Assembly: GCA_036276695.1 (NCBI GenBank) | Contig: DASUOI010000035.1 | Span: forward strand, 1-24,000 | Length of the DNA: 24,000 bases | Source of the DNA: Candidatus Saccharimonadales bacterium | Lineage (GTDB): Bacteria; Patescibacteriota; Saccharimonadia; Saccharimonadales; 2-12-FULL-41-12 | Reading direction: 5' to 3' | In this document: positions 3,823-24,000 of the stretch, piece by piece | Position numbering within the stretch: position 1 is the first letter of the stretch | How the letters are laid out: each line of letters opens with the position of its first letter | Program-made: the position numbers and the translations under genes | Notes under the pieces: model-generated | Database searches by the model: none | What the model saw: the letters and a program-made list of their open reading frames with translations, nothing else | What the model was told of the DNA's origin: nothing

Positions 3823-3993
3823 CTAGGAGTTACACACTTGGTAGCCAGGTACGATTTCTCTTTGAGAAGCGGACTAAGCCGTACATCTGGTACGGTGCAG
3901 GAGCATCGGAAAAGAAAATCGTGCATGGCTTCAAGAAGCCGGCAGAGTTTCGAGCTTTGCTCGAAAGTAACCCGGCTGGTGTGTAGCTCCTAG
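3823..3993. other. 171-nt imperfect palindromic, multi-hairpin element (candidate structured RNA, terminator cluster or MITE-like element)
   Basis: A 15-bp closing helix pairs 3823-3837 (ctaggagttacacac) with 3979-3993 (gtgtgtagctcctag), with one G-T pair. Inside it are perfect hairpins at 3879-3895 (ccgtac/gtacgg), 3927-3940 (ggcttc/gaagcc) and 3948-3966 (tttcgagc/gctcgaaa). A longer-range pairing joins 3851-3857 to 3916-3922. Confidence 0.6.
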
Positions 3994-5189
3994 CGGTAGA
4001 TATCTTGGAGGCCGAGGCTGCGGGAGCAAGACGGCCACGGCTGCCACCCTCTAGCCTGATAAGTCTCCCAGGCTTTTTGATCCTGTACAGCCGGAGGGGC
4101 TTCCGCGGCGTTGGAATACCCTCCATAACCGCCCCAAGTACCTATATCAAATTGATAGGCCCCGTAGTAGCCGTTGCCTGTATTGCTAGAATAGCTTCCT
4201 TCACAGCTTCTAAGGCGGGCCAGCGCACCGTCAAAACTACCGTCAAATCCGGCAGTTTTAGTGCCTTCCACGACTATGCGAGGTTTTGGTTGTACGCTGA
4301 TAACGCTCTGAATCTCGCTTCGGCTGACAACTTTGCCTTTTTTGACCTCAATCTGGTAAGTGACTATGCGTATTCCCGGCTCACCTTCATCTATAACTTT
4401 AGTAACTCCGACATCAAGCGTAGCATCATAACGGACTTCCGTAGGCGGGACTATCTGCTCCTCTTCGTTTATTATCTTTTGGCCCGGACGCAGGATGAAT
4501 ATTCTTAGATCTTTCTTTATCTTAGTTCTCAGATTTGGAACGAATTTGTCTTCAGGGTTTATGGATATGTTTTTCTCATTCAGAAGACCTTCTACGTCTT
4601 TTGCCAGCGTCCTTGTCTTTATGTCTTTTCCGTATAAGTTAATCGTGACCGGAGTTGAGCGCTTTATCAAAACCAAATCGCCTACTACTCCATCTTCAAG
4701 CAGAGCGGAATCCGGAGCGGCAAAAGCGATGTTATCTTCCGGGTAAACCTTAAATCCGGCTTTTTTTGCCAGAGCATGGGGAGTTGTCTCAGCTATCTTT
4801 GCCGTTACCGTCTCGCCATTTTCATCAACCACAGTTACAGGACGAGCATGATAAACGCTAACCTTGAAATCATCATCTAGTATGGGGCTGTTAATCCCGG
4901 GTTCTACAACATCTTCTTTCTGCAAAGTAATGCCGATTCTTCCTAACAGCTCGCCTACCGTGGAAGCTCTTGTAGGAACAGTCTTTACCTGCCCGTCTAT
5001 ATATACCTCCACTCGCTTCACGTCAGCATCTTTAAGCGTTTGGCCACCGTACAGCAAAAACCAGAAACAAAAGGTTAGTATCATAAGTATTGTCACAGCC
5101 ACCGGCACGGCTATGGGGTGCTTGAAATGCTTGCCAGTCGGCGTCTGTTCAATTGCTTGCTTGCTTGATTCAAGGTGTTTTCTAATCAT
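3990..5189 (-). CDS. RpfB-type cell-wall hydrolase: N-terminal TM anchor, 3x DUF348, G5 domain, C-terminal Rpf-like transglycosylase domain
   Basis: Three DUF348-like repeats are present ('VEVYIDGQVKTV...', 'VTVVDENGETVTAKI...', 'VTINLYGKDIKTRT...'). A G5-like segment follows ('VRYDATLDVGVTKVIDEGEPGIRIVTYQIEV'). The C-terminal 'CEGSYSSNTGNGYYGAYQFDIGTW...QPWPSC' matches the Rpf catalytic domain pattern. Confidence 0.85.
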   Translation of the reverse strand: MIRKHLESSKQAIEQTPTGKHFKHPIAVPVAVTILMILTFCFWFLLYGGQTLKDADVKRVEVYIDGQVKTVPTRASTVGELLGRIGITLQKEDVVEPGINSPILDDDFKVSVYHARPVTVVDENGETVTAKIAETTPHALAKKAGFKVYPEDNIAFAAPDSALLEDGVVGDLVLIKRSTPVTINLYGKDIKTRTLAKDVEGLLNEKNISINPEDKFVPNLRTKIKKDLRIFILRPGQKIINEEEQIVPPTEVRYDATLDVGVTKVIDEGEPGIRIVTYQIEVKKGKVVSRSEIQSVISVQPKPRIVVEGTKTAGFDGSFDGALARLRSCEGSYSSNTGNGYYGAYQFDIGTWGGYGGYSNAAEAPPAVQDQKAWETYQARGWQPWPSCSRSLGLQDIYR

Positions 5190-11276: not shown

Positions 11277-11307
11277 AAAAAAGCCCAGCCGGAAGCTGGA
11301 CTTTTTT
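11277..11307 (-). terminator. Rho-independent-type hairpin downstream of the tRNA-Glu 3' fragment
   Basis: The stem pairs agcccagc (11282-11289) with gctggact (11295-11302), with one C-A mismatch, and is flanked by A and T runs. On the minus strand the stem is followed by tttttt. Confidence 0.5.
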
Positions 11308-11308
11308 A

Positions 11309-11329
11309 TGGTGACCCCAAGGGGAATCG
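11309..11329 (-). repeat. 21-nt exact duplicate of the 3' end of tRNA-Glu (T-loop half + acceptor 3' strand + CCA)
   Basis: tggtgaccccaaggggaatcg at 11309-11329 is identical to 11442-11462. The flanking sequence does not fold into a cloverleaf. Confidence 0.7.
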
Positions 11330-11408: not shown

Positions 11409-11434
11409 AAAAAAGCCTAGCAAAAAGCTAGACT
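11409..11434 (-). terminator. Rho-independent terminator of tRNA-Glu
   Basis: The stem pairs agcctagc (11414-11421) with gctagact (11427-11434). It has the same architecture and the same C-A mismatch as the hairpin at 11282-11302. On the minus strand it is followed by a U-run (plus-strand A-run at 11409-11413). Confidence 0.55.
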
Positions 11435-11441
11435 CTTTTCG

Positions 11442-11516
11442 TGGTGACCCCAAGGGGAATCGAACCCCTATTGCCAGGATGAAAACCTGGTGTCCTAGCC
11501 GTTAGACGATGGGGCC
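11442..11516 (-). tRNA. tRNA-Glu (anticodon UUC), 75 nt, CCA encoded
   Basis: Hand-folded cloverleaf: GGCCCCA UC GUCU AACGGCUA GGAC A CCAGG UUUUCAU CCUGG CAAU AGGGG UUCGAUU CCCCU UGGGGUC A CCA. All four stems pair, with G2-U71 and U13-G22 wobbles. The anticodon loop positions 34-36 read UUC. Confidence 0.9.
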
Positions 11517-11558: not shown

Positions 11559-11602
11559 GTAAAAAAACAAAATAACCCGCCTCCTCACGAGTGCGGGTTA
11601 TT
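11559..11602 (-). terminator. Rho-independent terminator ending the surface-protein transcription unit
   Basis: A 10-bp stem pairs aataacccgc (11571-11580) with gcgggttatt (11593-11602). An inner ctc/gag pairing extends it. On the minus strand it is followed by ttttgttttttt. Confidence 0.65.
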
Positions 11603-11712: not shown

Positions 11713-12486
11713 TTAGGACTGACGTCGGGCGAATAAGCGGTGTAGTAACGCGCTTATAGAACTGACACCTAAGAAGGTTGTGAAGACTGCTGCTGGACCT
11801 GTGTTAGGTAGAGACTTAGGCTTCTGAGGGGGTTGTTCCTTAGGAGGTTGAGGGTTACATTCGTCTCCTGGAGTCTCAGGGTTATCTACGCATGGATTAC
11901 ATTCGTCTTCCGGAGTTTCTGGGTTATCTTCACAAGGTGGCTTTTGCGGACAATTTATCTTTGCTTTGAACTGTACGAAGCGCTTTTGGTTTATAGATAC
12001 ACCTATGTCGCCTATATGTACACCGGAACCTTCAGTAACGTCTGAAATGTTTTTAATGAAGTTACTGTTATGGTCAAGTAGTTCGCTACTTCCTGATATG
12101 TAGGTAAGTTTCTGAGGTGAAGAGATGTTAACTGTTGCCGTATCAGAAGTATTTGTAGGCTGAGCGTTAGACGCACGGACAGTTACTATAGATACGTTCT
12201 TTGCAACGGCTTCGGTCCCAAAAGTAGCCTGAACCGTTACATTTTTTAGGGTTTCGGTAGGGCCCGGGTTATGAATCCGTACCTTGTACAGAATTGTGTC
12301 GCAGGGCTCCGCGCTTATTGGGTCACCTAATGAAGTGTTCTTCGTTAGGTTCTTCCCGTAGTATATGTCTCCACCCTCGATTGACGGAGGTACCGTCGCT
12401 CCAGCTGAACCAACTAAACTTGTTAGGGCCAGGACCATCACAGCTGATGCTGTTACTAGGCTTGTTGCTATTTTTTTGATACTCAT
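11713..12486 (-). CDS. LPXTG (LPNTG) cell-wall-anchored surface protein with a DUF11/CARDB-like beta-sandwich region
   Basis: It has a signal peptide, 'MSIKKIATSLVTASAVMVLALTSLVGSAGA'. 'CDTILYKVRIHNPGPTETLKNVTVQATF' resembles DUF11-type repeats. The C-terminus 'LPNTGPAAVFTTFLGVSSISALLHRLFARRQS' is a sortase motif plus hydrophobic helix plus basic tail. Confidence 0.8.
   Translation of the reverse strand: MSIKKIATSLVTASAVMVLALTSLVGSAGATVPPSIEGGDIYYGKNLTKNTSLGDPISAEPCDTILYKVRIHNPGPTETLKNVTVQATFGTEAVAKNVSIVTVRASNAQPTNTSDTATVNISSPQKLTYISGSSELLDHNSNFIKNISDVTEGSGVHIGDIGVSINQKRFVQFKAKINCPQKPPCEDNPETPEDECNPCVDNPETPGDECNPQPPKEQPPQKPKSLPNTGPAAVFTTFLGVSSISALLHRLFARRQS
11851..11934 (-). repeat. Tandem 2 x 42-nt coding repeat (14-aa unit C-x-DNPETP-x-DECNP)
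   Basis: The units 11851-11892 and 11893-11934 are adjacent and near-identical. They encode 'CEDNPETPEDECNP' and 'CVDNPETPGDECNP' in the stalk preceding the LPNTG signal. Confidence 0.8.
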
Positions 12487-12511
12487 TTTAAATATTACCT
12501 TTCCCCGCCCT

Positions 12512-14053
12512 TTATAATTGATTCGGGATAACTGGGAAGTTATCCATTACTTGTGACTCGCCTCCGCGACCGTCAGATAGTTCAGCGCTTGCTGTTACCT
12601 GCATAGGTTCTGAAGGAGCTCTCCATCGTACACATTGAGTCTCACCGTTTGAACCAGGCATAGTGAATACACCGCCATTAGTATCGCTATTAAGGATTTG
12701 TCCTACGTCTTGACCGCTTGTGTTCTCGAAGTCAAAATTACGAGCTGTTACAGCGTCACCATCTGGGTCTGATATACCGTCTACACATACAGGGCCTTCT
12801 GAATTAGGATATCTGTGCTGAGGAGGAGTCATTACGCCTGTAGGAGGGTTGTTTTCAGGCTCAGGGTTAGGTCCAGGAGGTTTTTCGCCGGGGCCACAAT
12901 TTACACTTACTTGCTGGTCTACCTGGGTACTAGTACTTGTATTAGCAGCAGCTCCTACAAAAGCGTTAAATTTTCCTCTGAACGCAGCGCGAAGGTCGGT
13001 AACGGTTGCACCGTTTCCTCTTGTCAATTCAGACCTAGTGATTACAACGCCTCTTCCGCTGGCTTTAAGTCTAGCGGCAGCTGCGGCTAAGCCTTGAGCA
13101 TATGCACTTGAGTTTATATTAGCGCTGAAAGTAGAACCGTCAGGACATGTTACGGTAGTAGAAGATGTACTTTGTGACCTGGATTCAGATTCAGCTTCAG
13201 CTTTCAGTTTAGCTGCTATACCTGCAGTTACATCTATAGAAAAGTCTTTACTCTGAGGCTTACGAGGTGGTCGTTTTGGAGTTCGCTTAATAGTCTGCGC
13301 TCCACATTCACCACGAAGAGCAGCATCTTTAACTCTCCACATTCCTTTGTGCTTTCCTTTTTTGATAAGCGCAAATTTCTCTTTTAGATGTCCTGGGATT
13401 TTCTTCAGAGCGTAACGGAAACCAACAGACTTAGAATGTACGTTAGCTATATCGACTGATTCGCAGCCATTAGCACCTGTGCTAGTTTTCCATTGACCAT
13501 TACGGGCACGGAATCTAGATATGACTGTAACGTTTCCAGGAGTAAGATACCTATCCCTGGCACGATCTGACTTTAAGCCAAGGGCTTCAGCCATACCGTC
13601 TCGTACAGGGTCGCAATCGCCACCGTTCTTTAGACGGAAGTTAACGTATTTTTCCATGTCCTTAGTTTTAGTAATTTTCGGACCGAATAATCCAAGGCTT
13701 CCTTCTGCAGAAGCTGGTTTAACGAGCTCTTTAGCTCCCATAATAGTAAGGCTAGCGGCAAGTAGAGCTACGCCTGTGCGTATACCGTTGCCTTTGGTTT
13801 TAGTTTTAGCTTCGCTGCCTTCAGCTACTGTTGTAGCTTTAGCACCCTCTGCTTGCGCAGCGGCTACTTGAGGTTCTGCACCCTCAGCCTGGCCTTGAGC
13901 CATATCTACACCAGCGGCTTCAGCTGCCGGGTCAACCATAGCTTGTTCAGCGCCAGCGACTTCAGGCATTAAACCTGCGCCTAACTCTGGTCTTTTCTCT
14001 ATTTCTAAACCCGGATTCATTGCTCCAGGTGTAATAGTTGCTGTTCCACTCAT
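12512..14053 (-). CDS. Hypothetical signal-anchored extracellular protein (513 aa) sharing a Cys-framed module with the 15168-16112 product
   Basis: About 90 aa of A/E/G/Q-rich N-terminus are followed by a TM segment, 'GIRTGVALLAASLTIMGA'. The central part has 'W-x-VK...R-x-CG', 'CPDGS', 'AQGLA' and 'NCGP' landmarks, then a Pro/Glu linker. The C-terminal domain of about 95 aa contains 'DPDGD'. There is no LPXTG. Confidence 0.7.
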   Translation of the reverse strand: MSGTATITPGAMNPGLEIEKRPELGAGLMPEVAGAEQAMVDPAAEAAGVDMAQGQAEGAEPQVAAAQAEGAKATTVAEGSEAKTKTKGNGIRTGVALLAASLTIMGAKELVKPASAEGSLGLFGPKITKTKDMEKYVNFRLKNGGDCDPVRDGMAEALGLKSDRARDRYLTPGNVTVISRFRARNGQWKTSTGANGCESVDIANVHSKSVGFRYALKKIPGHLKEKFALIKKGKHKGMWRVKDAALRGECGAQTIKRTPKRPPRKPQSKDFSIDVTAGIAAKLKAEAESESRSQSTSSTTVTCPDGSTFSANINSSAYAQGLAAAAARLKASGRGVVITRSELTRGNGATVTDLRAAFRGKFNAFVGAAANTSTSTQVDQQVSVNCGPGEKPPGPNPEPENNPPTGVMTPPQHRYPNSEGPVCVDGISDPDGDAVTARNFDFENTSGQDVGQILNSDTNGGVFTMPGSNGETQCVRWRAPSEPMQVTASAELSDGRGGESQVMDNFPVIPNQL

Positions 14054-14119
14054 AATTATATTCTTCTCCCTATTAAACTTTCTCCCACCGTCTGCCTAAA
14101 AACAGAGATGTTACTATGC

Positions 14120-14148
14120 ATATTATCATAACCGTTCTCTTTTGTCAA
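14120..14148 (-). promoter_or_regulatory. Sigma70-like promoter TTGACA-17-TAATAT for the 12512-14053 / 11713-12486 unit
   Basis: On the minus strand ttgaca is at 14148-14143, followed by a 17-nt spacer and taatat at 14125-14120. An A/T-rich 'attataaaat' lies upstream. A leader of about 60 nt contains GGGAG before ATG 14053. Confidence 0.55.
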
Positions 14149-14196
14149 TAGTATTTTATAATAATACTTTTTATGCTTACCCAGTGTTTTTCTAGA

Positions 14197-15087
14197 TTAA
14201 TAAACACCCACGTGCCAGTGACCGTCATCTGCTCCGGTATGGGCAGCGTCATCTCCGGGTCCTCTAAGTTCTAGCCCTTTATTCTTCGGCGTAACCCTGC
14301 GTATTATCGGGAACATTGACTTATTTCGGGGAGCTTTGCCATTAAATCTCCTTAAGTCTGCGGCATCTCCGTCCCAGTGATGAGAAGTCGGCACATGAGG
14401 ACCACTGGTAAAATGCCATATATTAAACTTTTTAATCTTAGAAGCTTTGTATAGGACTTTTAATAAAGTCTTGTCCAGTTTAGGACAGGCGCTTGGTTTT
14501 TGTTCCGCCTTAGAACATTGCCCTTTTCTTGCCTGATAGAGGTCTTTCTTAGCCTGCGCCGTGGCACTAATCCGTCCTTTTTTCCCTCTTCTAAGCTCAT
14601 TAATAATTTTTGTTGCCCAGTGCCTTCTAGTTCTCTTTTCGGGAACTTCAAGCAGTCTTGGACCATTATGCCTGCTCCCTCTGTCGGGACGATTGGGTTG
14701 ACTCGTATTGTCATTGCCATTGTTATTTCTCCCTCCACGATCAGGATTTGTAGACCCAGGGTCTTCAGGTTGCGAGCCTGAACTAGGTTCGTCTGTGTTT
14801 GTAGCACAGGTAGTTTCGGTGGTGGTCGTACTACCATCAGGTGAAGTTGTGGTTGTAGTAGTACACTCCATAGCAGGTGCCCCATATGCTGTGTCTGGTG
14901 TAAACACAGCTTCCCTTGCAAAATTAGCTCCTGCTAACGCAAGAACGCTGCCTGTAAGAGCAAGAGCTTTATTCAGGTTGCCAGGCAATTTCAAGTGTCT
15001 GCCTGTTGATTCCTGCGGTACTACTACAGGACTTTCAGGCGGGTTACCTGCCCGCATTTCTGGCGAAACCATTATTTCTCCACTCAT
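14197..15087 (-). CDS. Secreted or membrane-anchored LAS-family (peptidase M15-like) zinc metallopeptidase, probable peptidoglycan hydrolase
   Basis: The C-terminal domain has 'SHHWDGDAAD' (nt about 14356-14385), an exact fit to the S-x-H-x-x-G-x-A-x-D motif. It also has a terminal 'HWH' (H-x-H, nt about 14212-14220). A TM/signal anchor 'ALALTGSVLALAGA' lies upstream, followed by a Thr-rich and a basic linker. An alternative start is ATG 15072, with GGAGA 5 nt upstream. Confidence 0.7.
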   Translation of the reverse strand: MSGEIMVSPEMRAGNPPESPVVVPQESTGRHLKLPGNLNKALALTGSVLALAGANFAREAVFTPDTAYGAPAMECTTTTTTSPDGSTTTTETTCATNTDEPSSGSQPEDPGSTNPDRGGRNNNGNDNTSQPNRPDRGSRHNGPRLLEVPEKRTRRHWATKIINELRRGKKGRISATAQAKKDLYQARKGQCSKAEQKPSACPKLDKTLLKVLYKASKIKKFNIWHFTSGPHVPTSHHWDGDAADLRRFNGKAPRNKSMFPIIRRVTPKNKGLELRGPGDDAAHTGADDGHWHVGVY

Positions 15088-15120
15088 GAAATAAGCACAC
15101 TTCCTTAATTAACTTCATAT

Positions 15121-15149
15121 AAAATAACATAAACATTATAAAATGTCAA
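15121..15149 (-). promoter_or_regulatory. Sigma70-like promoter TTGACA-17-TATTTT for the LAS peptidase gene
   Basis: On the minus strand ttgaca is at 15149-15144, followed by a 17-nt spacer and tatttt at 15126-15121. AAGGAAG lies 12 nt upstream of ATG 15087. Confidence 0.45.
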
Positions 15150-15167
15150 TATTCTTGTATGGCGTTG

Positions 15168-16112
15168 TTATAGGCCTAGGCGACGAGTGATTGCAGAGTA
15201 TGCAAAGCTGGCTAGAGAACTAACACCTATGAATGTGGCGACTACTGCACCAGGACCAGTGTTAGGAAGTTCTGCAGGCTTGGTTTCCACTACTACGGGC
15301 GCGGGCTGTTCAGGCTTCGGGGGTTTAGGCTGCTTATAAATTACAGTGGCTGGCATGAAGGCTGGCTTCTCGGGTTCTTCTTCAGGCTCCTCAGGTTCAG
15401 GTTCTGGCTCTTCAATCTGCGTGCTGCCGCATGTAGCTTCAATCTTACCCTTGGCCTGGGCAATTGCTTTGGCCTTGGCACTATCTTTTAGCTGTATCTC
15501 AAGGTTATTGGTATTGCCTTGGGCTGATACCAGCATTTGGCGGGTAATCTTAATCTTGGCCACGGCTAAACCGGCTGCCTGAGCGGTTAGTTTAGAGCCG
15601 TCAGGGCAGACTATTTCTTCTTTAAGGTTTACGGAAGCTCGGGCGGTTGCGGTCATGTTCATATTATTAAAATTCCGCACCATGACGACAGGACCGTTTA
15701 CTACCTCGCCGGGAGGGTTGCCATGAGGCTTATAGGGGTTGCCGCAATTACGTCCGGTCTGGCCGCCTTTTACTTTGATCCAGCCGGTTGGAGAATTAGC
15801 GCTCCGGCAAATTTTGGCATTTGCTGGGTCATGAAACCACTTCAGGCTTCCGTCTACGCTGCGACCAGAGTTATAGCCGCCTTGTACCCATTGGCATTTT
15901 TTGTACTTGACGCCGTTATACATCTTCACATCTTCCAAAATAGTGCCTTTGTAATTAAGGCCGGACACGCTTACATCTTCAGCTGTGACAGTGTAAGGCT
16001 CATTAGCCTTTGCCCCTTGGGAGCTGAGGCTTAAAGCTAGCGCAACGGCAAGCGCAACCAGGCCTATAATTAGCCTTTTATTCATTGCATATATTTTCTT
16101 TGCTAGCTCCAT
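15168..16112 (-). CDS. LPXTG (LPNTG) cell-wall-anchored surface protein, paralogous module to the 513-aa protein
   Basis: I prefer ATG 16112, preceded by AAGGAGG (16127-16121) at 8-nt spacing, over the track's GTG at 16145. The signal peptide reads '...MNKRLIIGLVALAVALALSLSSQGAKA'. The body carries 'WIKVK...RNCG', 'CPDGSKLTAQAAGLA' and 'ATCGS', then an (EP)n linker. The C-terminus is 'LPNTGPGAVVATFIGVSSLASFAYSAITRRLGL'. Confidence 0.8.
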   Translation of the reverse strand: MELAKKIYAMNKRLIIGLVALAVALALSLSSQGAKANEPYTVTAEDVSVSGLNYKGTILEDVKMYNGVKYKKCQWVQGGYNSGRSVDGSLKWFHDPANAKICRSANSPTGWIKVKGGQTGRNCGNPYKPHGNPPGEVVNGPVVMVRNFNNMNMTATARASVNLKEEIVCPDGSKLTAQAAGLAVAKIKITRQMLVSAQGNTNNLEIQLKDSAKAKAIAQAKGKIEATCGSTQIEEPEPEPEEPEEEPEKPAFMPATVIYKQPKPPKPEQPAPVVVETKPAELPNTGPGAVVATFIGVSSLASFAYSAITRRLGL

Positions 16113-16168
16113 CTCACTGCCCTCCTTGCGGCGCCTTGTCTCCACCCAAGGTTTATAAATGTATTATT

Positions 16169-16198
16169 AATATACCAATAAGTGTTATTTTCCGTCAA
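16169..16198 (-). promoter_or_regulatory. Sigma70-like promoter TTGACG-18-TATATT, homologous to the promoter at 14120-14148
   Basis: On the minus strand ttgacg is at 16198-16193 and tatatt is at 16174-16169. The upstream 'agcataa..attataaaat..tattgac' aligns with the 14149-14185 region. Confidence 0.5.
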
Positions 16199-16243
16199 TA
16201 TGATTTTATAATATGCTTATGCTAATAAAGCAAAAAGGCGTTT

Positions 16244-18430
16244 TTAGTGTTTTTTTGCAGCATGTTTCTTTTTGTCAAAACAAAAGCCGAAAGTGCTGCC
16301 TTTATTTTCCTGGCTTTCGAATAGGAGATGCCCTCCTTGAGCGTCTATAACTTTCTTAGCCATAAACAAGCCTAGCCCGGTGCCATCAGGCCTGGCTTTG
16401 CGGGCATTTGAGGCCCTATAAAACTTGGTGAACAGATGCGGGATGTCTTTTTTGGGTATACCTAAGCCGTTGTCTATTATTTTGAAGTATACGTTGCTTT
16501 TGTCTTCGGTCAGTTCCACCTTTATCGTGCCTCCGCTAGGAGTGTAATATATCGCGTTATCGGCAAAATTCATGATAACCTGGCGTATTTTTGTTTCATC
16601 CAGCGCTAAAGTCGGGAAATTCTTCGGCTTTTCATACTCAATCTCCACCTTCTTCGCTTTGGCGGTCTCTCTAAGCTGGCCGATTTCGCCTTCTATAACC
16701 TCTGCCAAATTAGTAGGAGTGGCTTCTATAATAAATTTTCCGGTCTTAAGCCTGGAAACATTTAGTAGGTCGGCGATAAGGTAAACCATCCTTTGCGAGC
16801 TAACGAAAGCCTGGTTAAGAAGTTCTCTCTGTTGTTTGCTGATTTTGCCTGCATCGCCCTCTAAAACCATGCTCATATATCCTTTCACGCTAGTTAGAGG
16901 TGTCCTTAACTGGTGCGAGGCCATGCTGATGAATTCATCTTTAGTCTCGTCAAGTTCACGGAGCTTTTTGTTGGTCCTCTGCAGTTTAGCTGTAGCGGTA
17001 TTTACTTCCGCTTGCAGTTTAGCGGCAAATCCTTGGATTTCTTCAAATCTTAAAGCGTTTTCAATAGCGATAAGAAGCTCGTCTGAAATAATGTCGATAG
17101 TATGCACGTCTTGCTTGCTGTATACATTCCCGCTTTTTTTGGTACCGATTATAAGGTGGGCTATAGGCTCGGTTGGCTGATCTTCGCTTGGTATCAGCCT
17201 GGATATTACACCTATATTCTTACTGGAAAGTAAGTTTTTCAGCTTACTGTCGCCAGAGCCAAGCTGATCTGTAATAAGGACTCTTTTGCTTGAATGGCTT
17301 AGACTATCTAATATATATTCCGTCTCTGTTTTATCCAGATCAATAAACCCCACCCCAATAATCTTGTGAGGGGTAGTGGGCGTAGAAAGTACCTCTATAA
17401 AGCAATGTTCGCTTTTTAAATTCTCCTGGATTACTTTAGTAGTGTGTCGAAGCAGAACGCCAAGCTCGATATTACCTACTATGGCCGAATTCAGCTCATC
17501 TAAAAACTCTTCCGGGTCATAAGCGTCCCTGTAGAATATGCGGTTAGTTAATTTGTCGAAGAATTTCTTAGTTGGAACATACAATAGAGCGCTTATAAGG
17601 GCGAGGATTATGTAGGAAGCTCTTTCTGCGCTGTCGATCTTGTTATCAGAAATAAAGACAGACGACAAAAGGAAGATAGCTCCCCCGTAAATTAAGCCAA
17701 TGGACCCGAGGGATAAGATGTATGCCACGCTTCTGGCTACCGCACGCTTTATGTCAAACAGATGGTGTTTCACTATCGCATAAGCTATCAACGTAGAAAA
17801 TGCCAGAGGATATATAGGCGCAAAAGGCACAAATACTTTTATATTTAGCAAAGCGGGGAGGAGAAAATTAGAAATAGGAGCTATGAATAGTAAGATTCCA
17901 CTAGCTGAAATAACGAATCGAAACTGGTCTCTTGTTAAGCCCCGGGAATGTTTGTGTTTATAAAGCAAAATACGAATGCCTATCATTATTGAAGTTATAG
18001 TATGGAGCATGAACAGTCCTATCAATGGGCTCGGATTCAGTACAATGGATGCATTCTCTTCCGTATAGCTAGTGAAATAACCCGGAAATATACCAGCCAG
18101 AAAGACTATCAAGCTAAAGAAAATATATCTATGGATTAGCTTATTAGATAAGTTCGGTCTATTGTCGGGAAATCTGTTAGCAAATAAGACGAAGAATGTA
18201 TGCTGTAATACGACAAATAATAATATAGACTCTACGGCTATAAACTCAGAATTTGGAGCAGATACTACTGTTGATAGAAAATTAGCAGTACTTAGCCCTA
18301 TTAAGGCAGTTATGAGCATAGCGAACGCCCTGTTCATAGCACTGCTCGGATTCTTAAGCAGTAATACAAGACCAATACCTATATTGGCCAAGCTAGCTGC
18401 AACTAGAATAAAAACATCAATTAAATTCAT
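16244..18430 (-). CDS. Sensor histidine kinase with a large N-terminal multi-TM (7TM-type) domain, a central GAF-like region, HisKA and HATPase_c
   Basis: About 8 hydrophobic helices occupy the first ~290 aa. The H-box is 'MASHQLRTPLTSVKGY', the N-box 'NFADNAIYYTP', G1 'IDNGLGIP' and G2 'GTGLGL'. No response regulator is present in the window. Confidence 0.9.
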   Translation of the reverse strand: MNLIDVFILVAASLANIGIGLVLLLKNPSSAMNRAFAMLITALIGLSTANFLSTVVSAPNSEFIAVESILLFVVLQHTFFVLFANRFPDNRPNLSNKLIHRYIFFSLIVFLAGIFPGYFTSYTEENASIVLNPSPLIGLFMLHTITSIMIGIRILLYKHKHSRGLTRDQFRFVISASGILLFIAPISNFLLPALLNIKVFVPFAPIYPLAFSTLIAYAIVKHHLFDIKRAVARSVAYILSLGSIGLIYGGAIFLLSSVFISDNKIDSAERASYIILALISALLYVPTKKFFDKLTNRIFYRDAYDPEEFLDELNSAIVGNIELGVLLRHTTKVIQENLKSEHCFIEVLSTPTTPHKIIGVGFIDLDKTETEYILDSLSHSSKRVLITDQLGSGDSKLKNLLSSKNIGVISRLIPSEDQPTEPIAHLIIGTKKSGNVYSKQDVHTIDIISDELLIAIENALRFEEIQGFAAKLQAEVNTATAKLQRTNKKLRELDETKDEFISMASHQLRTPLTSVKGYMSMVLEGDAGKISKQQRELLNQAFVSSQRMVYLIADLLNVSRLKTGKFIIEATPTNLAEVIEGEIGQLRETAKAKKVEIEYEKPKNFPTLALDETKIRQVIMNFADNAIYYTPSGGTIKVELTEDKSNVYFKIIDNGLGIPKKDIPHLFTKFYRASNARKARPDGTGLGLFMAKKVIDAQGGHLLFESQENKGSTFGFCFDKKKHAAKKH

Positions 18431-18481: not shown

Positions 18482-19528
18482 CTAAGATGTTAAAACTTTA
18501 CCTAACTTCTTACGTGCGCTATAAGGAAGTTTATCTTTAGGTTTGCCAATGCAAAAAAGCAGCTGCGGTATTGTATTTTTATTTTTGGGCGGGGTTAATT
18601 GTGATACTTTGTTTCTTAAATCCCCCATCTCAATCGCGGCGGCATAAATGCTTGAACTTATACCCAATCCGGTTAACTTAACCATCACTTCTTGCATCAG
18701 CATCCCGGCTTTTAGCCATCCTTCTTTAGTATCTACGGAATAAAGTATCGCTACGGTTGGGGCTGATATAAAACTCCTATAGTTGATAGCGCTCAAACGT
18801 TCGCCTATGTCTTTGCGCTTCATTACCTTTGGGATGACTACGGATTTGGGAAAATTCATACGCAGAGAATATCCATGAAGCCCGTGCTTTTTAATGCTCA
18901 AATTATGGTTAATGTATGAGCTTATTTCACGACGGAATTCTCGTGAAGCATAGGCCATACGGAGGCCTCTTGCCGTTAGCTTCGCGAGTTCTTGAATAGT
19001 AGTCTTGTCGGTGACAAGCTGAACATCAACGTCTGGACCGGAGGCGGCAATGATGTCCTTAACTTCTGAGGATTTATTTAGAATAGGCTGAAAATACCCT
19101 CTGTAATTTTGCCTGTCTTTAATATTATGAAGCAGCTTTTTATTTATCTTAGAATTTGGCTTTAAATCCTTATATATCACGGTAGATATAGGTAAGTTAT
19201 CGGTTATTTTGACTGCATGTTTTATTTGATAATCAATGCCATATGCCTGGCTGGCAAGCTCTATGTTTTTAATTAATGCTCCGAGGCTCATGTATAAGTC
19301 ACGGCCTGACGGATCAGCTTGGGGGATTTTTTTCGAGTGATCAGCAAAAATTTTTACTGTGTTGTCTTTAACTTCTATCTTCCATGGCTGGGTATTATGT
19401 GTGGATGGAGCAAGAACGCCATATTCTAGGATATGATGTATCTTCTTCTGGTCGTCCTGGTAGTGGTGTATTGACTTCTTAGATAACCTCTGGCGATGCC
19501 TCCTATGAGTGTGTTTAGGACCAATCAC
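18482..19528 (-). CDS. Tandem nitroreductase-fold (Acg / Rv1355c C-terminal type) FMN oxidoreductase-like protein
   Basis: 'GVLAPSTHNTQPW' is a nitroreductase signature. At 348 aa it is about twice a single nitroreductase domain. The GTG start at 19528 overlaps the upstream TGA stop (GTGA). The N-terminal linker 'HTHRRHRQR' is basic. Confidence 0.8.
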   Translation of the reverse strand: MIGPKHTHRRHRQRLSKKSIHHYQDDQKKIHHILEYGVLAPSTHNTQPWKIEVKDNTVKIFADHSKKIPQADPSGRDLYMSLGALIKNIELASQAYGIDYQIKHAVKITDNLPISTVIYKDLKPNSKINKKLLHNIKDRQNYRGYFQPILNKSSEVKDIIAASGPDVDVQLVTDKTTIQELAKLTARGLRMAYASREFRREISSYINHNLSIKKHGLHGYSLRMNFPKSVVIPKVMKRKDIGERLSAINYRSFISAPTVAILYSVDTKEGWLKAGMLMQEVMVKLTGLGISSSIYAAAIEMGDLRNKVSQLTPPKNKNTIPQLLFCIGKPKDKLPYSARKKLGKVLTS

Positions 19529-20637
19529 TGTTTTCCTTTCAGCAGTTCCTGGAGTATTTGTGTTCGTTCACTATTGTCAGAAAATTCGTCGGTGGCTATA
19601 TCAAATAATTTATCAAATTGTATAAAATATCGTCCTGCTTTAACAGGTTTGCCTAAAAGTATATTTTTAGCCAAATAAGCCGCGAAGCCTCCGTCTACGG
19701 CAACAGTACTATAAAGTTGCGGCCGGCCTACCAGACTTTTGCCGATTTGAGTCACCGAGCGAAGAGCGTTAGTCGGTATGTACTGAGACCCAACTAGCTG
19801 TACAGCGTACCGTTTTTCATCTTCTTTCGTAATATCTTTAGATAGAATTGTATGCTCCTGGTCACTGCTTAAAATACCGTTAAATATACGCTGGGATTCA
19901 TCTAAATCGTACCTTTCAATATCAACAAGCATATTGTCGCCAAGATTAGTAAACATGATAAGCGGTATTTTGTATTTTTTAGCATGCAGTCTTAGCTGTA
20001 CCTTCATTTTAAAATCATCTATTTCGTCAACGACTAGATCAAGATCGGGAGAAGTGAAAAAATCATCAATATTACCAGCGTCTACTCCCTCTTCAAAAAC
20101 ATGGACTTCAGCAAAAGGATCAAGTTCATATATATGACGAGCAGCCAGTTCGGCTTTAGACTTTCCGACATTAATTAGGGATTCCCTAAGCCTGTTAAGG
20201 TTGCTGGTGTCGACTTCATCGTGATCGGCTATTTTTATCTCTCTGGATATTCCGGAATAAGCCAACCCTAGAGCAATTCCCGAGCCGACCGACATGCCAG
20301 CTATGCCCACGATGCTGCCAGCAAGTTTCTGCTGTTCTTCATCTTCAATAAGCTGCTTGTTACGGTTGGTCCTGAGAGCCATCAATTCTTTGGGTCCTAA
20401 GCAATGCAGAAGTTGCTTTGACCAAGGATAGAAGACCCATGCCGTGTTTTGCGTGTCAAAGGAAGAAACAAATTGTTTTAGGGCTTGTGCATTTTCTTCG
20501 CCGGGGTTTTGGATTTTAAAGAGTTCTTTAAGCTGCTTCTCAACAATATCTACTGGTTCATTTTTCCCAAGTTTACGAAATTCATCTACATCTTCCGGTC
20601 TATAGCTGTTCGGGAAAAGAATTTTTGGCTTGTTCAT
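19525..20637 (-). CDS. ThiF/MoeB-type E1-like adenylyltransferase (Rv1355c N-terminal type)
   Basis: The glycine-rich nucleotide loop 'IVGIAGMSVGSGIALGLAYSG' and 'DHDEVDTSNLNR' are the ThiF family core. I prefer ATG 20637 (MNKPKILF...), 1 nt after the upstream TAA, over the track start at 20730, which would overlap the upstream gene by 92 nt. Confidence 0.8.
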   Translation of the reverse strand: MNKPKILFPNSYRPEDVDEFRKLGKNEPVDIVEKQLKELFKIQNPGEENAQALKQFVSSFDTQNTAWVFYPWSKQLLHCLGPKELMALRTNRNKQLIEDEEQQKLAGSIVGIAGMSVGSGIALGLAYSGISREIKIADHDEVDTSNLNRLRESLINVGKSKAELAARHIYELDPFAEVHVFEEGVDAGNIDDFFTSPDLDLVVDEIDDFKMKVQLRLHAKKYKIPLIMFTNLGDNMLVDIERYDLDESQRIFNGILSSDQEHTILSKDITKEDEKRYAVQLVGSQYIPTNALRSVTQIGKSLVGRPQLYSTVAVDGGFAAYLAKNILLGKPVKAGRYFIQFDKLFDIATDEFSDNSERTQILQELLKGKQ

Positions 20638-20638
20638 T

Positions 20639-22147
20639 TTATATAACCCACTTTTGTTTCGTCCCCGGCTTAAAGTAGTCAGGGTCTCCATTATCAAGTA
20701 AATATATGTGCGGTTGGAACTTTTCACCAATAATTTCTGCAGTTACTCTGTACTCTGAATTTTCTTCGCAAAGCTGTGTGTGAATATGCTTCTTTAGCTT
20801 GTCTTTTAGCGTTTTTTCCTCTTGGGTAGGCTTTTTTTCTATATAGATTTTAAATCTCTGGTTGCCGTTTTTATCATAGTCTACTTCCATGGTAAATTTA
20901 CCTGTTATATGTTTTTCAAATTCAACAGCCTGCAGTGCGCGGCGTACAGTATCCGGATAAATTAAAAATGCATAGTAGCTAACACTGAAGTCATCACGCT
21001 CATACACATAAACAAATGGTAAATTCCAAACAGTACTTTCTATTCCCTTTTCTTTTATAATCGCATCTATGTCATAGCCGCTTGCTCTGAGGCGCTTGTA
21101 CACCTCCTTTTTAGTAAGAACTCCTCCGTAATCTTTTAGGTCATAGCGGAACAGAGGAATCCCGCTATATGAGCTGCACAGAAGGTTCTTACCCTCTTGC
21201 TCAAAATAGAATAAACTTGGATCATATTGCGCTAAAGTCGGCTGACGTTTATCTTCCGGGAATAGAATACTCAATTTATCATCTTTTACTAATAATCTGC
21301 GGACTAAGATTGACAGAGGGGTCTCATGAGCCATGGTACCTAAATCAACTGTTCCGTAATGATTTAACGTAGAGCGCAAAGTGTTTTTGGCTCCTACTGT
21401 TTTTAGAATGTAATCCCTAAAAGTTTCACTGAAAGCCTCGGCAGAGAATATAAGACCGATATTATAATTTTTCCAATTCACTCCTTGTTCGCTACCTTGG
21501 TCTAGTATGTCTTTGAGATGAGGAGCATAGGCGGCGATGATTACTTGATCAAACTCATGACCAAGCTGCTTAACAGCATTTATTACTTCTTGCCTGTGTA
21601 TGCCCGGCGTAATTATGCTCAAAGGATATCCTTTTTCTGCGACCTGTCTGATAGATTCATAGGTGAAGACACCGCCAATCCACGCCCCCATTGGAAAAGC
21701 ATCTATATATAAAGTGGATTTATTTTGGATATTAAAATTTGCCCTAAGATAGAGTTCTGTTGTTATAGCAAGAAATTTATCCTGCGTATCCGTCCTTGGA
21801 AAATAATACGGCTCCCCTGTCGAGCCCGATGTGGTACTGACAACCCAGCTTTGTTCGGCAAACTTACCTTCCCAGCATAAATCAGGACGGGAATAAGCTC
21901 TTAAATAATTATTCTTGTCTAATGCCGGGACGGAAGAGAAGTCTTTAAAGCCCTTTATGTCAGCAGTGTTAATTCCTTGTTTTTTTAAGAATTTTTTATA
22001 GGCCGGAACATCGCGCGCCATAGAGTGAAACAGGCGAAGAGCCCTCTTTTGACCGCTCTTGATCCAGTGTTCTTCTTTTTTTGATTGCAGGTTATTGTGT
22101 AAAACTTCTGCATTCTTGTAGCCGCGCGGCAGTGATAATTGAGTCAT
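20639..22147 (-). CDS. PaaK / coenzyme-F390-synthetase-like adenylate-forming ligase (ANL superfamily)
   Basis: 'STTSGSTGEPYYF' is a P-loop-like AMP-binding motif. 'PLFRYDLKDYG' corresponds to the PaaK 'RYRTxD' hinge. 502 aa. Confidence 0.75.
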   Translation of the reverse strand: MTQLSLPRGYKNAEVLHNNLQSKKEEHWIKSGQKRALRLFHSMARDVPAYKKFLKKQGINTADIKGFKDFSSVPALDKNNYLRAYSRPDLCWEGKFAEQSWVVSTTSGSTGEPYYFPRTDTQDKFLAITTELYLRANFNIQNKSTLYIDAFPMGAWIGGVFTYESIRQVAEKGYPLSIITPGIHRQEVINAVKQLGHEFDQVIIAAYAPHLKDILDQGSEQGVNWKNYNIGLIFSAEAFSETFRDYILKTVGAKNTLRSTLNHYGTVDLGTMAHETPLSILVRRLLVKDDKLSILFPEDKRQPTLAQYDPSLFYFEQEGKNLLCSSYSGIPLFRYDLKDYGGVLTKKEVYKRLRASGYDIDAIIKEKGIESTVWNLPFVYVYERDDFSVSYYAFLIYPDTVRRALQAVEFEKHITGKFTMEVDYDKNGNQRFKIYIEKKPTQEEKTLKDKLKKHIHTQLCEENSEYRVTAEIIGEKFQPHIYLLDNGDPDYFKPGTKQKWVI

Positions 22148-22208
22148 GTTTTACCTTTTCTTATCAGTAATTTTATCATCTCGGCACATTGGACCTAATT
22201 AATGTTTA

Positions 22209-23438
22209 TTAAAACGACAATAGCTCTACTCCATCTGGTATGTCTGATTTCTCCATGGCCTTGTTAATGATTTGTCCCAGTACTGGTCCAATAGGACGCT
22301 TTTCAGGCCGCTCCGCCACTTCTTTATTTAGAAATTCACCGTGCTCATTAGCATAATCAAGCACAAGTTCAGCCAATGCGATTTTATACTTTTCATATCC
22401 TAAAAAGGCTTCTTGGATGTCTCCGTTACATCCGATTAGGAATCTTGCTAAGACATCTGCGCTATATATGGCAGTATTGGCTCCAAACCCAGCCCAAGGA
22501 GGCGATGCGCTGCCAGCATCCCCAACTACAATGCATTTATCGCCTAAAATATAATTGGTTATAGATTTATAGTGAAAATGCCCCAATTTTCTACCTACTA
22601 CCTGATTGGCAAGGTCTGGTTCAAGCGACAAAACTTCCGGGAAATCCTGTTTAAGCCGCTCAATTGCCTGATCGGGCATTGAAAATGGACTCTCGTCTAT
22701 TACGTCTTTGTACGGGGAAATCAGCAAAGTAGCTATGGTGCCGTCTTTATTAGGCATGCCTATGGCCACTGATTCACTTCCCGCTTTATGCCAAAAATGC
22801 ATATGGTGAGACGACAAACCCTTTGCGGCTTTTTGTCCCAGCATAACAGATATGTAGCTTAAAGGATCTTGCTTTTTACCCAGCGAGCCACCGGGCAGTG
22901 CAGTAATAAATACGTCCGATAAACTATGTATACCGTCAGCTAGTACGATAACGTCTGCCTTGAGCTCCTTTTTTATAGCATCTTTGTTTTCGCATACGAC
23001 TTTACCTAAATTCGGTTCAACTTCTACTACTTTAGTATGGAAATGAATTTTCACACCTTGGTCTTCAACTATATTGACCAAGTTCTGGCGAAGAACAGGT
23101 CGGGGGACACTAGTTAGTATTGATTTGTCTCCTTCTCCGTATTCAGTGTATTTTATAGCACCGGTGTTTTGAAAATTATGAATCGCACGACCAATTACAT
23201 CTGTACCGCCTTGCCAAGCACGCTCCTCCCCTAAGATTTTTCTGCCGACTTCATTTAAGGTTAAATTAAAAGATCTATCAGTATATCCGGGGTTTAGGCC
23301 ATGCGGACTACCAGCCCTCTCTATTACCATGACATCTGCTCCGTTTAGGCTGGCAGCTTTTGCGAAAGTTAGCCCTCCCGGCCCAGCCCCAACGACAATT
23401 ATCTTCAGGTCCTTAAGTAAATTACCCGAGCTATACAT
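22209..23438 (-). CDS. FAD-dependent aromatic-ring monooxygenase (UbiH / kynurenine-3-monooxygenase-like, group A flavoprotein)
   Basis: GxGxxG 'IIVVGAGPGGLTFA...VMVIER', the 'VLADGIHS' DG motif, and the 'VVGDAGSASPPWAGFGANTAIYSA' GD motif. Confidence 0.85.
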   Translation of the reverse strand: MYSSGNLLKDLKIIVVGAGPGGLTFAKAASLNGADVMVIERAGSPHGLNPGYTDRSFNLTLNEVGRKILGEERAWQGGTDVIGRAIHNFQNTGAIKYTEYGEGDKSILTSVPRPVLRQNLVNIVEDQGVKIHFHTKVVEVEPNLGKVVCENKDAIKKELKADVIVLADGIHSLSDVFITALPGGSLGKKQDPLSYISVMLGQKAAKGLSSHHMHFWHKAGSESVAIGMPNKDGTIATLLISPYKDVIDESPFSMPDQAIERLKQDFPEVLSLEPDLANQVVGRKLGHFHYKSITNYILGDKCIVVGDAGSASPPWAGFGANTAIYSADVLARFLIGCNGDIQEAFLGYEKYKIALAELVLDYANEHGEFLNKEVAERPEKRPIGPVLGQIINKAMEKSDIPDGVELLSF

Positions 23439-23554: not shown

Positions 23555-24000
23555 ATGTCATTTATAGCGCAAAGATTAGATTATTTTGATAGTAGTGATT
23601 TCCGAAAGGCTGTTGAAAAACAGTCTCTTCTTGCTCATCCAATTGATTTAAGCATCGGCATACCTGAGGAGCTGACTGCCGAGCACGTAAAGGCTGCTGC
23701 TATACAGGCAATCAATGAAGATAAAACTATCTACACGCCATCAAACGGCATTCCAGAGCTTCGAAAAATCTTAGCTAAAAAGCTAAGGGAAGAAAACTAC
23801 ATCCCCTGCGATGAAAATACCGTAACCATAGTACCGGGCCTTACTACAGGACAATTGCTTGTTTATTTGGCCATTATAGACCCCGGGGACGAAGTTGTTG
23901 TATTTGACCCTTATTACCCACCTTACCCTCACCTGGCAACTACAGCGGGCGCTAGGGTCGTGTACGCATCCACTCTGCCAACATTCCAGCCGGATCTTGA
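23555..24000 (+). CDS. Class I/II PLP-dependent aminotransferase (AspC-like), 5' part (runs off the window end)
   Basis: ATG 23555 opens a frame to the window end. It reads 'MSFIAQRLDYFDSSDFRKAVEK...IDLSIGIPE...YTPSNGIPELRKILAKKL...TIVPGLTTGQLLVYLAIIDPGDEVVVFDPYYPPY', typical of the N-terminal third of fold-type I aminotransferases. It is absent from the ORF track because it is unterminated. Confidence 0.8.
   Translation, partial: MSFIAQRLDYFDSSDFRKAVEKQSLLAHPIDLSIGIPEELTAEHVKAAAIQAINEDKTIYTPSNGIPELRKILAKKLREENYIPCDENTVTIVPGLTTGQLLVYLAIIDPGDEVVVFDPYYPPYPHLATTAGARVVYASTLPTFQPDL

Follow-up and report, generated by a model that had tools for sequence, protein, structure and literature searches.

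A 24-kb stretch of DNA from an uncultured Candidatus Saccharimonadales metagenome-assembled genome (MAG; phylum Saccharimonadota, formerly TM7), hereafter called the window, contains four consecutive genes, named D, C, B and A in the order of transcription. They raise the question of what four envelope proteins encoded side by side might do together, and whether the block belongs to the lineage or was brought in from elsewhere. All four products are predicted to be exported, each having an N-terminal hydrophobic segment followed by an AxA-like site, as the original prediction of four envelope proteins had it. The answer that we consider probable is a lineage-specific, inherited surface operon, with a fixed frame in which modules are replaced by recombination, whose products would contact and cleave the wall of another cell.

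The evidence comes from nine related loci (L001/L007, L003, L004, L005/L008, L009, L010, L013, L014 and L015). In all nine, the cassette is found directly downstream of the same seven-transmembrane (7TM) histidine kinase gene. The promoters, the 5′ leaders, gene D, the C-terminal domain of B and the sorting signals form a conserved frame, and the modules inside this frame are replaced. At the position of gene C, homology to L001, the closest relative of the window, ends exactly at the stop codon of D (15168) and resumes at 14179; L001 has unrelated DNA there, and L003 has no gene at all. The window, L004 and L005 carry a LAS-type gene in this slot, and the leader is likewise joined to a LAS-type domain in the proteins P0005 and P0006. 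L009, L010 and L015 have the same promoter and the same leader, Thr-rich, Cys and linker region, but joined to a Peptidase_C39_2 domain, an arrangement also seen in P0041 and P0042 (scores of 38 bits in L009, 27 in L010 and 51 in P0041, all above the gathering score of 24). An exhaustive search found the C leader joined to a second LAS-like domain in P0043 and P0047, and to an unassigned domain in P0049. Moreover, the LAS domain occurs on a B-type leader in P0032 and P0034.

Gene B is replaced in the opposite half. Its homology to L001 breaks at 14050 and resumes at 12861, and at least three or four types of passenger can be distinguished in between. The window-type passenger could not be aligned with that of L003 and L005 (E 0.17 and 1.6), which are themselves of one type (E 5e-61), and the type that a locus carries is not predicted by how closely its flanks are related. 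Gene A shows another kind of change: its product is 97.7% identical to the L001 orthologue and its synonymous divergence (dS) is 0.38, three- to six-fold below that of all other compared genes, which points to a recent exchange between lineages. In L010 (8828-15505), a second copy of the module was observed in tandem, with the order D-B-A, a methyltransferase, a C39_2-type C gene, a second B and the start of another gene; the second B has a short Cys-containing tail in place of the PKD-like domain.

D and A are the two proteins with recognisable anchoring signals. Predicted Sec signals were identified at residues 9-34 of D and 5-32 of A, followed by the AxA sites AKA↓NE and AGA↓TV, respectively. 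Both proteins end with LPNTG, 20-23 mostly hydrophobic residues and RR (tails RRLGL in D and RRQS in A), and 18 of 34 residues of the two sorting signals are identical (53%, E 2e-9). The motif is retained as LP[NDKVEQ]TG in all D and A orthologues, and these two families are the only open reading frames (ORFs) with LPxTG-type ends across the nine related loci. Where both proteins are available, in seven genomes, their X residues agree in five (N/N twice, D/D three times) and differ in the remaining two (N/K and D/V), which is compatible with one shared sortase. No sortase domain or TLxTC-containing ORF was found in the window or in the recovered related loci. The curated LPXTG_anchor model TIGR01167 gives D 10.9 bits against a cut-off of 15.9 and does not match A, so the assignment of both as LPXTG proteins rests on the pattern.

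Between its two signals, D consists of a Cys-containing two-module core of ~190 amino acids (aa), with five conserved cysteines, and a Pro/Glu-rich stalk. No relative of this core was found in Pfam, NCBIfam, PHROG or the PDB, the last being searched with the D profile. Among 5.8 billion proteins there are 25 D homologues, all metagenomic or from Saccharimonadales MAGs, and contig scans with D detected it in 2 of ~185,000 GTDB species and on 2 JGI metagenome contigs. D is under purifying selection: it is 87.5% identical to its L001 orthologue, with a dS of 1.35 and a ratio of nonsynonymous to synonymous divergence (dN/dS) of 0.053. Protein A has a predicted beta-sandwich-like N-terminal domain, a stalk of NPETPxDECNP repeats and the sorting signal. 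Its N-terminal domain weakly resembles the DUF11-type repeat TIGR01451 (E 0.11, 12.5 bits against a cut-off of 24), and its profile found no relative among PDB sequences. The number of stalk repeats varies among A orthologues, and in L003 a PKD domain stands in for part of the stalk. Two other identities were considered and ruled out for these proteins: a thioester adhesin domain, as the Cys...TQxA(I/V)W pair is missing, and a sortase-assembled pilus, as there is neither a pilin motif nor a class C sortase.

B is by its sequence a paralogue of D without an anchor. It starts with a 90-aa low-complexity region, continues with a hydrophobic segment (90-111) and ASA↓EG, and then comprises a passenger (~115-397) and a C-terminal domain (398-513). 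No C-terminal sorting signal is present. The passenger is lineage-specific and contains a D-like module at 246-377. By BLASTP, B and D give only a match centred on CPDGS (E 0.009), while hhalign of the two families aligns residues 246-377 of B with 119-231 of D (a module of ~110 residues, 94.5% probability, E 7.9e-8). The N-terminus of B resembles that of C, both having 35-90 hydrophilic residues, one moderately hydrophobic Ala/Gly/Leu segment and an AxA-like site; with its long n-region, it is predicted to be either a signal that is cleaved off or a signal anchor.

The C-terminal domain of B behaves like D. Over its 116 residues, the identity to the two closest relatives is 76-86%, and against L001 it has a dS of 1.04 and a dN/dS of 0.077, again indicating purifying selection. 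Its profile matches the PKD-like domains of ColH and ColG (9lqj, 6e-4; 4aqo, 0.004; 4u7k, 0.011; 4u6t, 0.024); these E-values are modest, but several independent PDB entries agree. The Pfam models PKD and PKD_4 did not match. The domain is predicted to be a calcium-binding PKD-like domain. The NNPPTG at its start was considered as an internal sortase motif and rejected: it aligns with the N-x-x-P start of the ColH PKD-like domains, and it is followed by a globular domain with no hydrophobic tail.

For C, the architecture comprises a long hydrophilic N-terminus, a hydrophobic segment (38-57), a Thr-rich segment bounded by cysteines (C75...C94), a basic Pro-rich linker and a C-terminal domain (~145-296) that is predicted to be a LAS/M15A-type zinc peptidase. 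The zinc-site motifs SHHWDGDAAD (H237-x6-D244) and H290-W-H292 are present in that order, H237, D244 and H292 being the predicted zinc ligands and H290 the predicted catalytic residue. A profile of three sequences (C and its two close relatives, P0005 and P0006) found nothing in the PDB; used in an exhaustive HMMER search, it identified 33 proteins. In the 27 relatives that cover the C-terminal domain, H231, S235, H237, G240, D244, H290 and H292 are invariant. The profile of these 27 sequences matches the zinc D-Ala-D-Ala carboxypeptidase of Streptomyces albus G (PDB 1lbu, E 4.3e-6), as well as ~20 hedgehog N-domains (Sonic, Indian and Desert; E ~3e-5 to 5e-3), and both alignments coincide exactly with the SxHxxGxAxD and GPG...HxHV motifs of C. 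Distant relatives are fused to PG_binding_1, PG_binding_3, SH3_3, or GH46 and YkuD_2 (an L,D-transpeptidase domain), and their aligned region has sub-threshold matches to Peptidase_M15_3, M15_4, HH_signal and Extensin-like_C. The window protein itself is matched by none of the Pfam clan models (Peptidase_M15, M15_2, M15_3, M15_4 and VanY) and by no NCBIfam model, and C may therefore be placed in an unmodelled branch of the LAS superfamily. Its leader likewise has no Pfam, NCBIfam or PHROG match. The short motif PDGS is common to B (303-307) and D (169-173), both of which have CPDGS, and to C (80-86), which has SPDGS inside the Thr-rich segment, as do its relatives; it may be a coincidence or a shared modification or recognition site.

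These analyses bear out the parts of the original prediction that concern the proteins themselves, namely two LPNTG substrates sharing one signal, a LAS peptidase, a non-anchored 513-aa protein with a module in common with D, and the absence of a sortase from the window.

The block was further predicted to have its own promoters and terminator, and this was supported, in the case of the promoters by position and by conservation. All genes from 1.3 kb to 23.4 kb are carried by the minus strand in the ORF map of the window, and transcription runs from the 7TM histidine kinase through D, C, B and A to a hairpin with a T-run, followed by tRNA-Glu, a methylpurine glycosylase and phosphoglycerate kinase (Table 1). 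The B, C and D proteins are 100% identical to the Candidatus Saccharimonadales entries VFX79_02755, VFX79_02760 and VFX79_02765, respectively; for D, the NCBI annotation has a 305-aa form. Sigma-70-like sites scoring 10/12, each with an extended −10 TG, are found in all three intergenic regions 5′ of D, C and B, and A, which starts 25 nt after B, has no promoter of its own. In the other loci, the C-slot promoter is kept at 80-91% identity whether a LAS-type or a C39-type gene follows. The B promoter and 5′ untranslated region (UTR; 14179-14050) can be recognised in 8 of 10 B-type genes, and their identity to L001 is 91%.

Table 1. Features of the surface-protein block and its immediate neighbours in the window, in the order of transcription (SD, Shine-Dalgarno sequence)
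Feature	Coordinates	Strand	Remarks
7TM-receptor histidine kinase	16244..18430	-	HisKA_7TM, HisKA and HATPase_c; immediately upstream of the cassette in every related locus
D promoter-like site	16169..16198	-	TTGACG-18-TATATT with TG; preceded by ATTATAAAAT; resembles the conserved B promoter
Gene D	15168..16112	-	314 aa from the ATG at 16112 behind AAGGAGG, the best start; ORF extends to a GTG at 16145
C-slot promoter region	15103..15163	-	TTGACA-17-TATTTT with TG
Gene C	14197..15087	-	296 aa
B promoter and 5′ UTR	14050..14179	-	TATTATAAAAT-TTGACA-17-TAATAT, then GGTGGGAG and SD GGGAGAA
Gene B	12512..14053	-	513 aa
B variable part (leader and passenger)	12862..14049	-	No DNA homology to L001; flanks 79-91% identical
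B constant 3′ part (PKD-like C-terminal domain)	12512..12861	-	DNA homology to L001 and L003 resumes here
Gene A	11713..12486	-	257 aa
Intrinsic-terminator-like hairpin and T-run	11575..11600	-	Closes the block, 3′ of A
tRNA-Glu(UUC)	11442..11516	-	Downstream of A

The D and B promoters have an AT-rich element in common, TATTATAAAAT, directly 5′ of the −35 hexamer (16169-16215 and 14120-14165, respectively), and both leaders contain a G-rich box before the SD (GGTGGGAG in B; GGTGGAG in D, followed by AAGGAGG). The B version of this promoter-leader element is kept across distant loci whose coding sequence is not. The shared element may bind a regulator or act as an RNA leader element.

Is the block an acquisition? 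The original prediction held that it differs from the neighbouring core genes, and this part did not stand. The synonymous codon choice of A-D lies within the range of 17 other genes of the window, B being slightly low with the lowest GC content at third codon positions (GC3, 0.298), so that a compositional island was ruled out. The backbone DNA of the window is 79-85% identical to L001, and D and the B C-terminal domain have dS values similar to those of the flanking core genes (1.0-2.4). No integrase or phage genes were found in the window, and viral scans gave no relatives. Together with the synteny behind the same kinase in nine loci, this argues that the block is not a recently acquired island; it appears to be vertically inherited in a small clade of environmental Saccharimonadales. 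Horizontal acquisition of the block as a genomic island, by insertion next to tRNA-Glu, is accordingly very improbable, even though a tRNA gene does adjoin the block, B has the lowest GC3, and the unusually low dS of A speaks of recent exchange. The adjacency to a tRNA gene was correctly noted in the original prediction, but there is no sign of an island in it: tRNA-Glu follows A in L001 and L005 as well as in the window, and the arrangement is thus ancestral. There is also a repeat, in which the last ~23 nt of tRNA-Glu and the terminator hairpin recur ~132 nt downstream (53 nt; 11277-11329 versus 11409-11462; 27 nt at 93% and 31 nt at 81% identity). It resembles what may be left of an att site, or a tandem tRNA copy in decay, and would favour an insertion, but it lies beyond the tRNA as seen from the cassette. 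The outcome that was to refute the original prediction, a cassette conserved and syntenic in relatives with the composition of core genes, is therefore seen by half: its frame and synteny are constant between relatives, the C domain and the B passenger are replaced, C is absent in L003, and the clade is very narrow.

Vertical inheritance, core-like composition and purifying selection are also what would be expected of housekeeping wall maintenance, with C as an autolysin or DD-carboxypeptidase acting on the cell's own peptidoglycan (for example, to make room for sortase-attached proteins or during division) and D, B and A as structural proteins. The closest solved relative of C, 1lbu, is a DD-carboxypeptidase, and the kinase domain of the adjacent sensor resembles WalK/VicK-type cell-wall kinases, with scores below the curated cut-offs. 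However, the peptidase is missing in some close relatives (none in L003, unrelated DNA in the slot of L001), and elsewhere the LAS domain is replaced on the same leader by a mechanistically different cysteine peptidase. A peptidase that is present in some relatives and absent from others, and whose domain is replaced, is hard to reconcile with a pure housekeeping autolysin; the replacement of the B passenger and the narrow clade distribution also fit it poorly, and we regard this explanation as unlikely. The same exchange could be expected of inter-bacterial antagonism, C and its variants being secreted bacteriolysins against competitors (for instance, rival Saccharibacteria on the same host), with self-protection through wall chemistry. 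Indeed, one conserved N-terminal leader carries at least three kinds of interchangeable C-terminal hydrolase domains, and the LAS domain is also found on a B-type leader. But C is embedded in an operon of anchored surface proteins and not in a toxin-immunity array, the window C has no wall-targeting domain, and neither a recognisable dedicated secretion system nor an adjacent immunity gene accompanies it (no secretion genes were found in the window). We therefore judge antagonism to be quite improbable. Competitors or the cell's own wall are nonetheless possible partners of the module.

Several results weigh against the proposed surface operon. Pfam, NCBIfam and PHROGs gave nothing above threshold for any of the four window proteins, so that the LAS assignment of C rests on the family profile and the motifs. 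Similarly, the promoter scan found 5 sites where 7.9 were expected by chance from shuffled sequences, which is no enrichment, and the promoter assignment rests on position and cross-locus conservation because the raw site count is not above chance. No immunity-like gene was found beside C, the 143-bp gap between C and B being the B promoter with no small ORF; this weakens a reading of C as an antagonistic toxin, and fits equally well an autolysin acting on the cell's own wall. Finally, a pore-forming or beta-amphipathic D/B core was ruled out, as its beta moments are not above those of shuffled sequences.

The surface operon that we favour would work as follows, its four proteins acting together at the cell surface. 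D and A would be exported by Sec and linked to peptidoglycan at LPNTG by a sortase encoded elsewhere, each displaying a globular N-terminal domain on a proline-rich stalk. C would be held behind an uncleaved or late-cleaved signal anchor on its threonine-rich and proline/lysine-rich tether, B and C being either tethered by their N-termini or released. The module would contact the wall of another cell and cleave it locally; the host attachment or host-wall remodelling suggested in the original prediction is a plausible function. Cultivated Saccharibacteria are epibionts of Actinobacteria (PMC10633639, PMC12206443), which makes the wall of an actinobacterial host the most economical, and likeliest, partner. 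Recombination would give C other wall-hydrolase domains in place of its catalytic domain, much as in polymorphic effectors, would swap the B passenger among at least three or four unrelated types, and would have recently passed A between lineages; a variable partner surface could select for this diversity in the peptidase domain and the passenger. The invariant adjacency of the 7TM kinase suggests that it is a candidate regulator of the cassette. A more specific version, in which the operon is a host-interaction apparatus of a kind not described before in soil Saccharimonadales, the D/B core is displayed as a new fold on the epibiont surface, the tethered exchangeable peptidase opens host peptidoglycan where the cells touch, the passenger and peptidase alleles set which host wall chemotypes a strain can exploit and the kinase switches the operon on upon contact, is a good deal more speculative, and we hold it to be doubtful.

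The elements of the block are of known kinds: LPXTG proteins, a LAS peptidase, a PKD-like domain, and polymorphism with a constant N-terminal and a variable C-terminal part. D and A resemble the sortase-anchored LPXTG adhesins of the MSCRAMM type in their Sec signal, globular N-terminal domain, Pro-rich stalk and LPxTG motif with hydrophobic and basic tail, but no described adhesin family includes their globular domains, and no sortase is linked. C has the zinc-site motifs of the Streptomyces albus G carboxypeptidase 1LBU, the founding enzyme of MEROPS M15A, and of the LAS/hedgehog-DD-peptidase superfamily, similarly spaced and in unchanged order. The PG_binding_1 domain of 1LBU recurs in distant relatives of C, but the window protein has no peptidoglycan-binding domain and instead places the enzyme on a signal anchor with a Thr-rich and Pro/Lys-rich tether. 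The C slot as a whole is reminiscent of the polymorphic toxin and effector systems reportedly described by Zhang, Aravind and colleagues in 2012, in which a conserved N-terminal trafficking region is combined with a variable C-terminal enzymatic domain: here too the promoter and N-terminal leader are kept, with alternative C-terminal hydrolase domains across genomes. Unlike those systems, it lacks a neighbouring immunity gene, any known trafficking domain (such as Rhs or LXG) and an array of orphan toxin cassettes, and the cargo types observed are all wall peptidases, except for the one unassigned domain of P0049.

For B, the likeness to the ColH and ColG PKD-like domains (4AQO, 4U7K and 9LQJ) extends to the N-x-P-P start and the DPDGD calcium-site loop; the B domain differs in having a conserved Cys pair and in lying C-terminal to an unrelated passenger rather than in a collagenase. 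Its pattern of variation can be compared with that of pneumococcal PspA and PspC, which are encoded by mosaic surface-protein genes with conserved ends and exchangeable central regions. B similarly has a conserved 5′ regulatory sequence, a conserved 3′ domain and a replaceable central passenger, but its passengers are non-alignable modules and not alleles of one fold, and it has no choline-binding or LPXTG anchor. In the literature searched, the combination of these elements, the D/B core and C leader families, and the reversed variation of B (constant 3′ domain, variable 5′ passenger) are undescribed.

What is known of how Saccharibacteria and other Patescibacteria recognise, hold and breach their hosts concerns mainly type IV pili, and in the literature searched neither sortase-anchored proteins nor wall hydrolases of these bacteria are given such roles. 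Exchange of the parts likely to make contact, here the peptidase domain and the passenger, between close relatives is the usual signature of specificity determinants. The locus thus provides concrete candidates for determinants of host range or competition. The D/B core and the C leader, moreover, represent at least two protein families without models in current domain databases.

Other genes around the block were also compared. A small orphan response regulator is encoded a few genes upstream of the kinase, beside a Mur ligase, in L003, L004, L005, L009 and L010; in the window it would fall beyond position 24000. On the other side, the stretch from A and tRNA-Glu to the glycolysis genes is variable. 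In L003 (12573-16896) it contains a response regulator, a CHASE/PAS kinase and an Mrr-like gene, with the tRNA inverted, and in L001 (12641-14410) a type IV pilin-like gene (N_methyl) and pyruvate kinase; in the window, no pyruvate kinase lies between the glycosylase and phosphoglycerate kinase. Upstream of the kinase (18482-23438) is a conserved set of four genes, for a ThiF-like E1, a nitroreductase, a PaaK/GH3-like adenylate-forming enzyme and an FAD monooxygenase. In the mycobacterial Rv1355c-family protein, the counterparts of the E1 and the nitroreductase form the two halves; the Acg (Rv3131) FMN-oxidoreductase family is a further counterpart. The set consists of actinobacterial-type genes in a presumed epibiont of Actinobacteria and possibly serves a small-molecule pathway. 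Finally, an RpfB-like protein with DUF348 repeats, a G5 domain and a resuscitation-promoting-factor transglycosylase domain is encoded at 3990-5189; its architecture is typical of Actinobacteria, and it is the second wall-active enzyme in the window.

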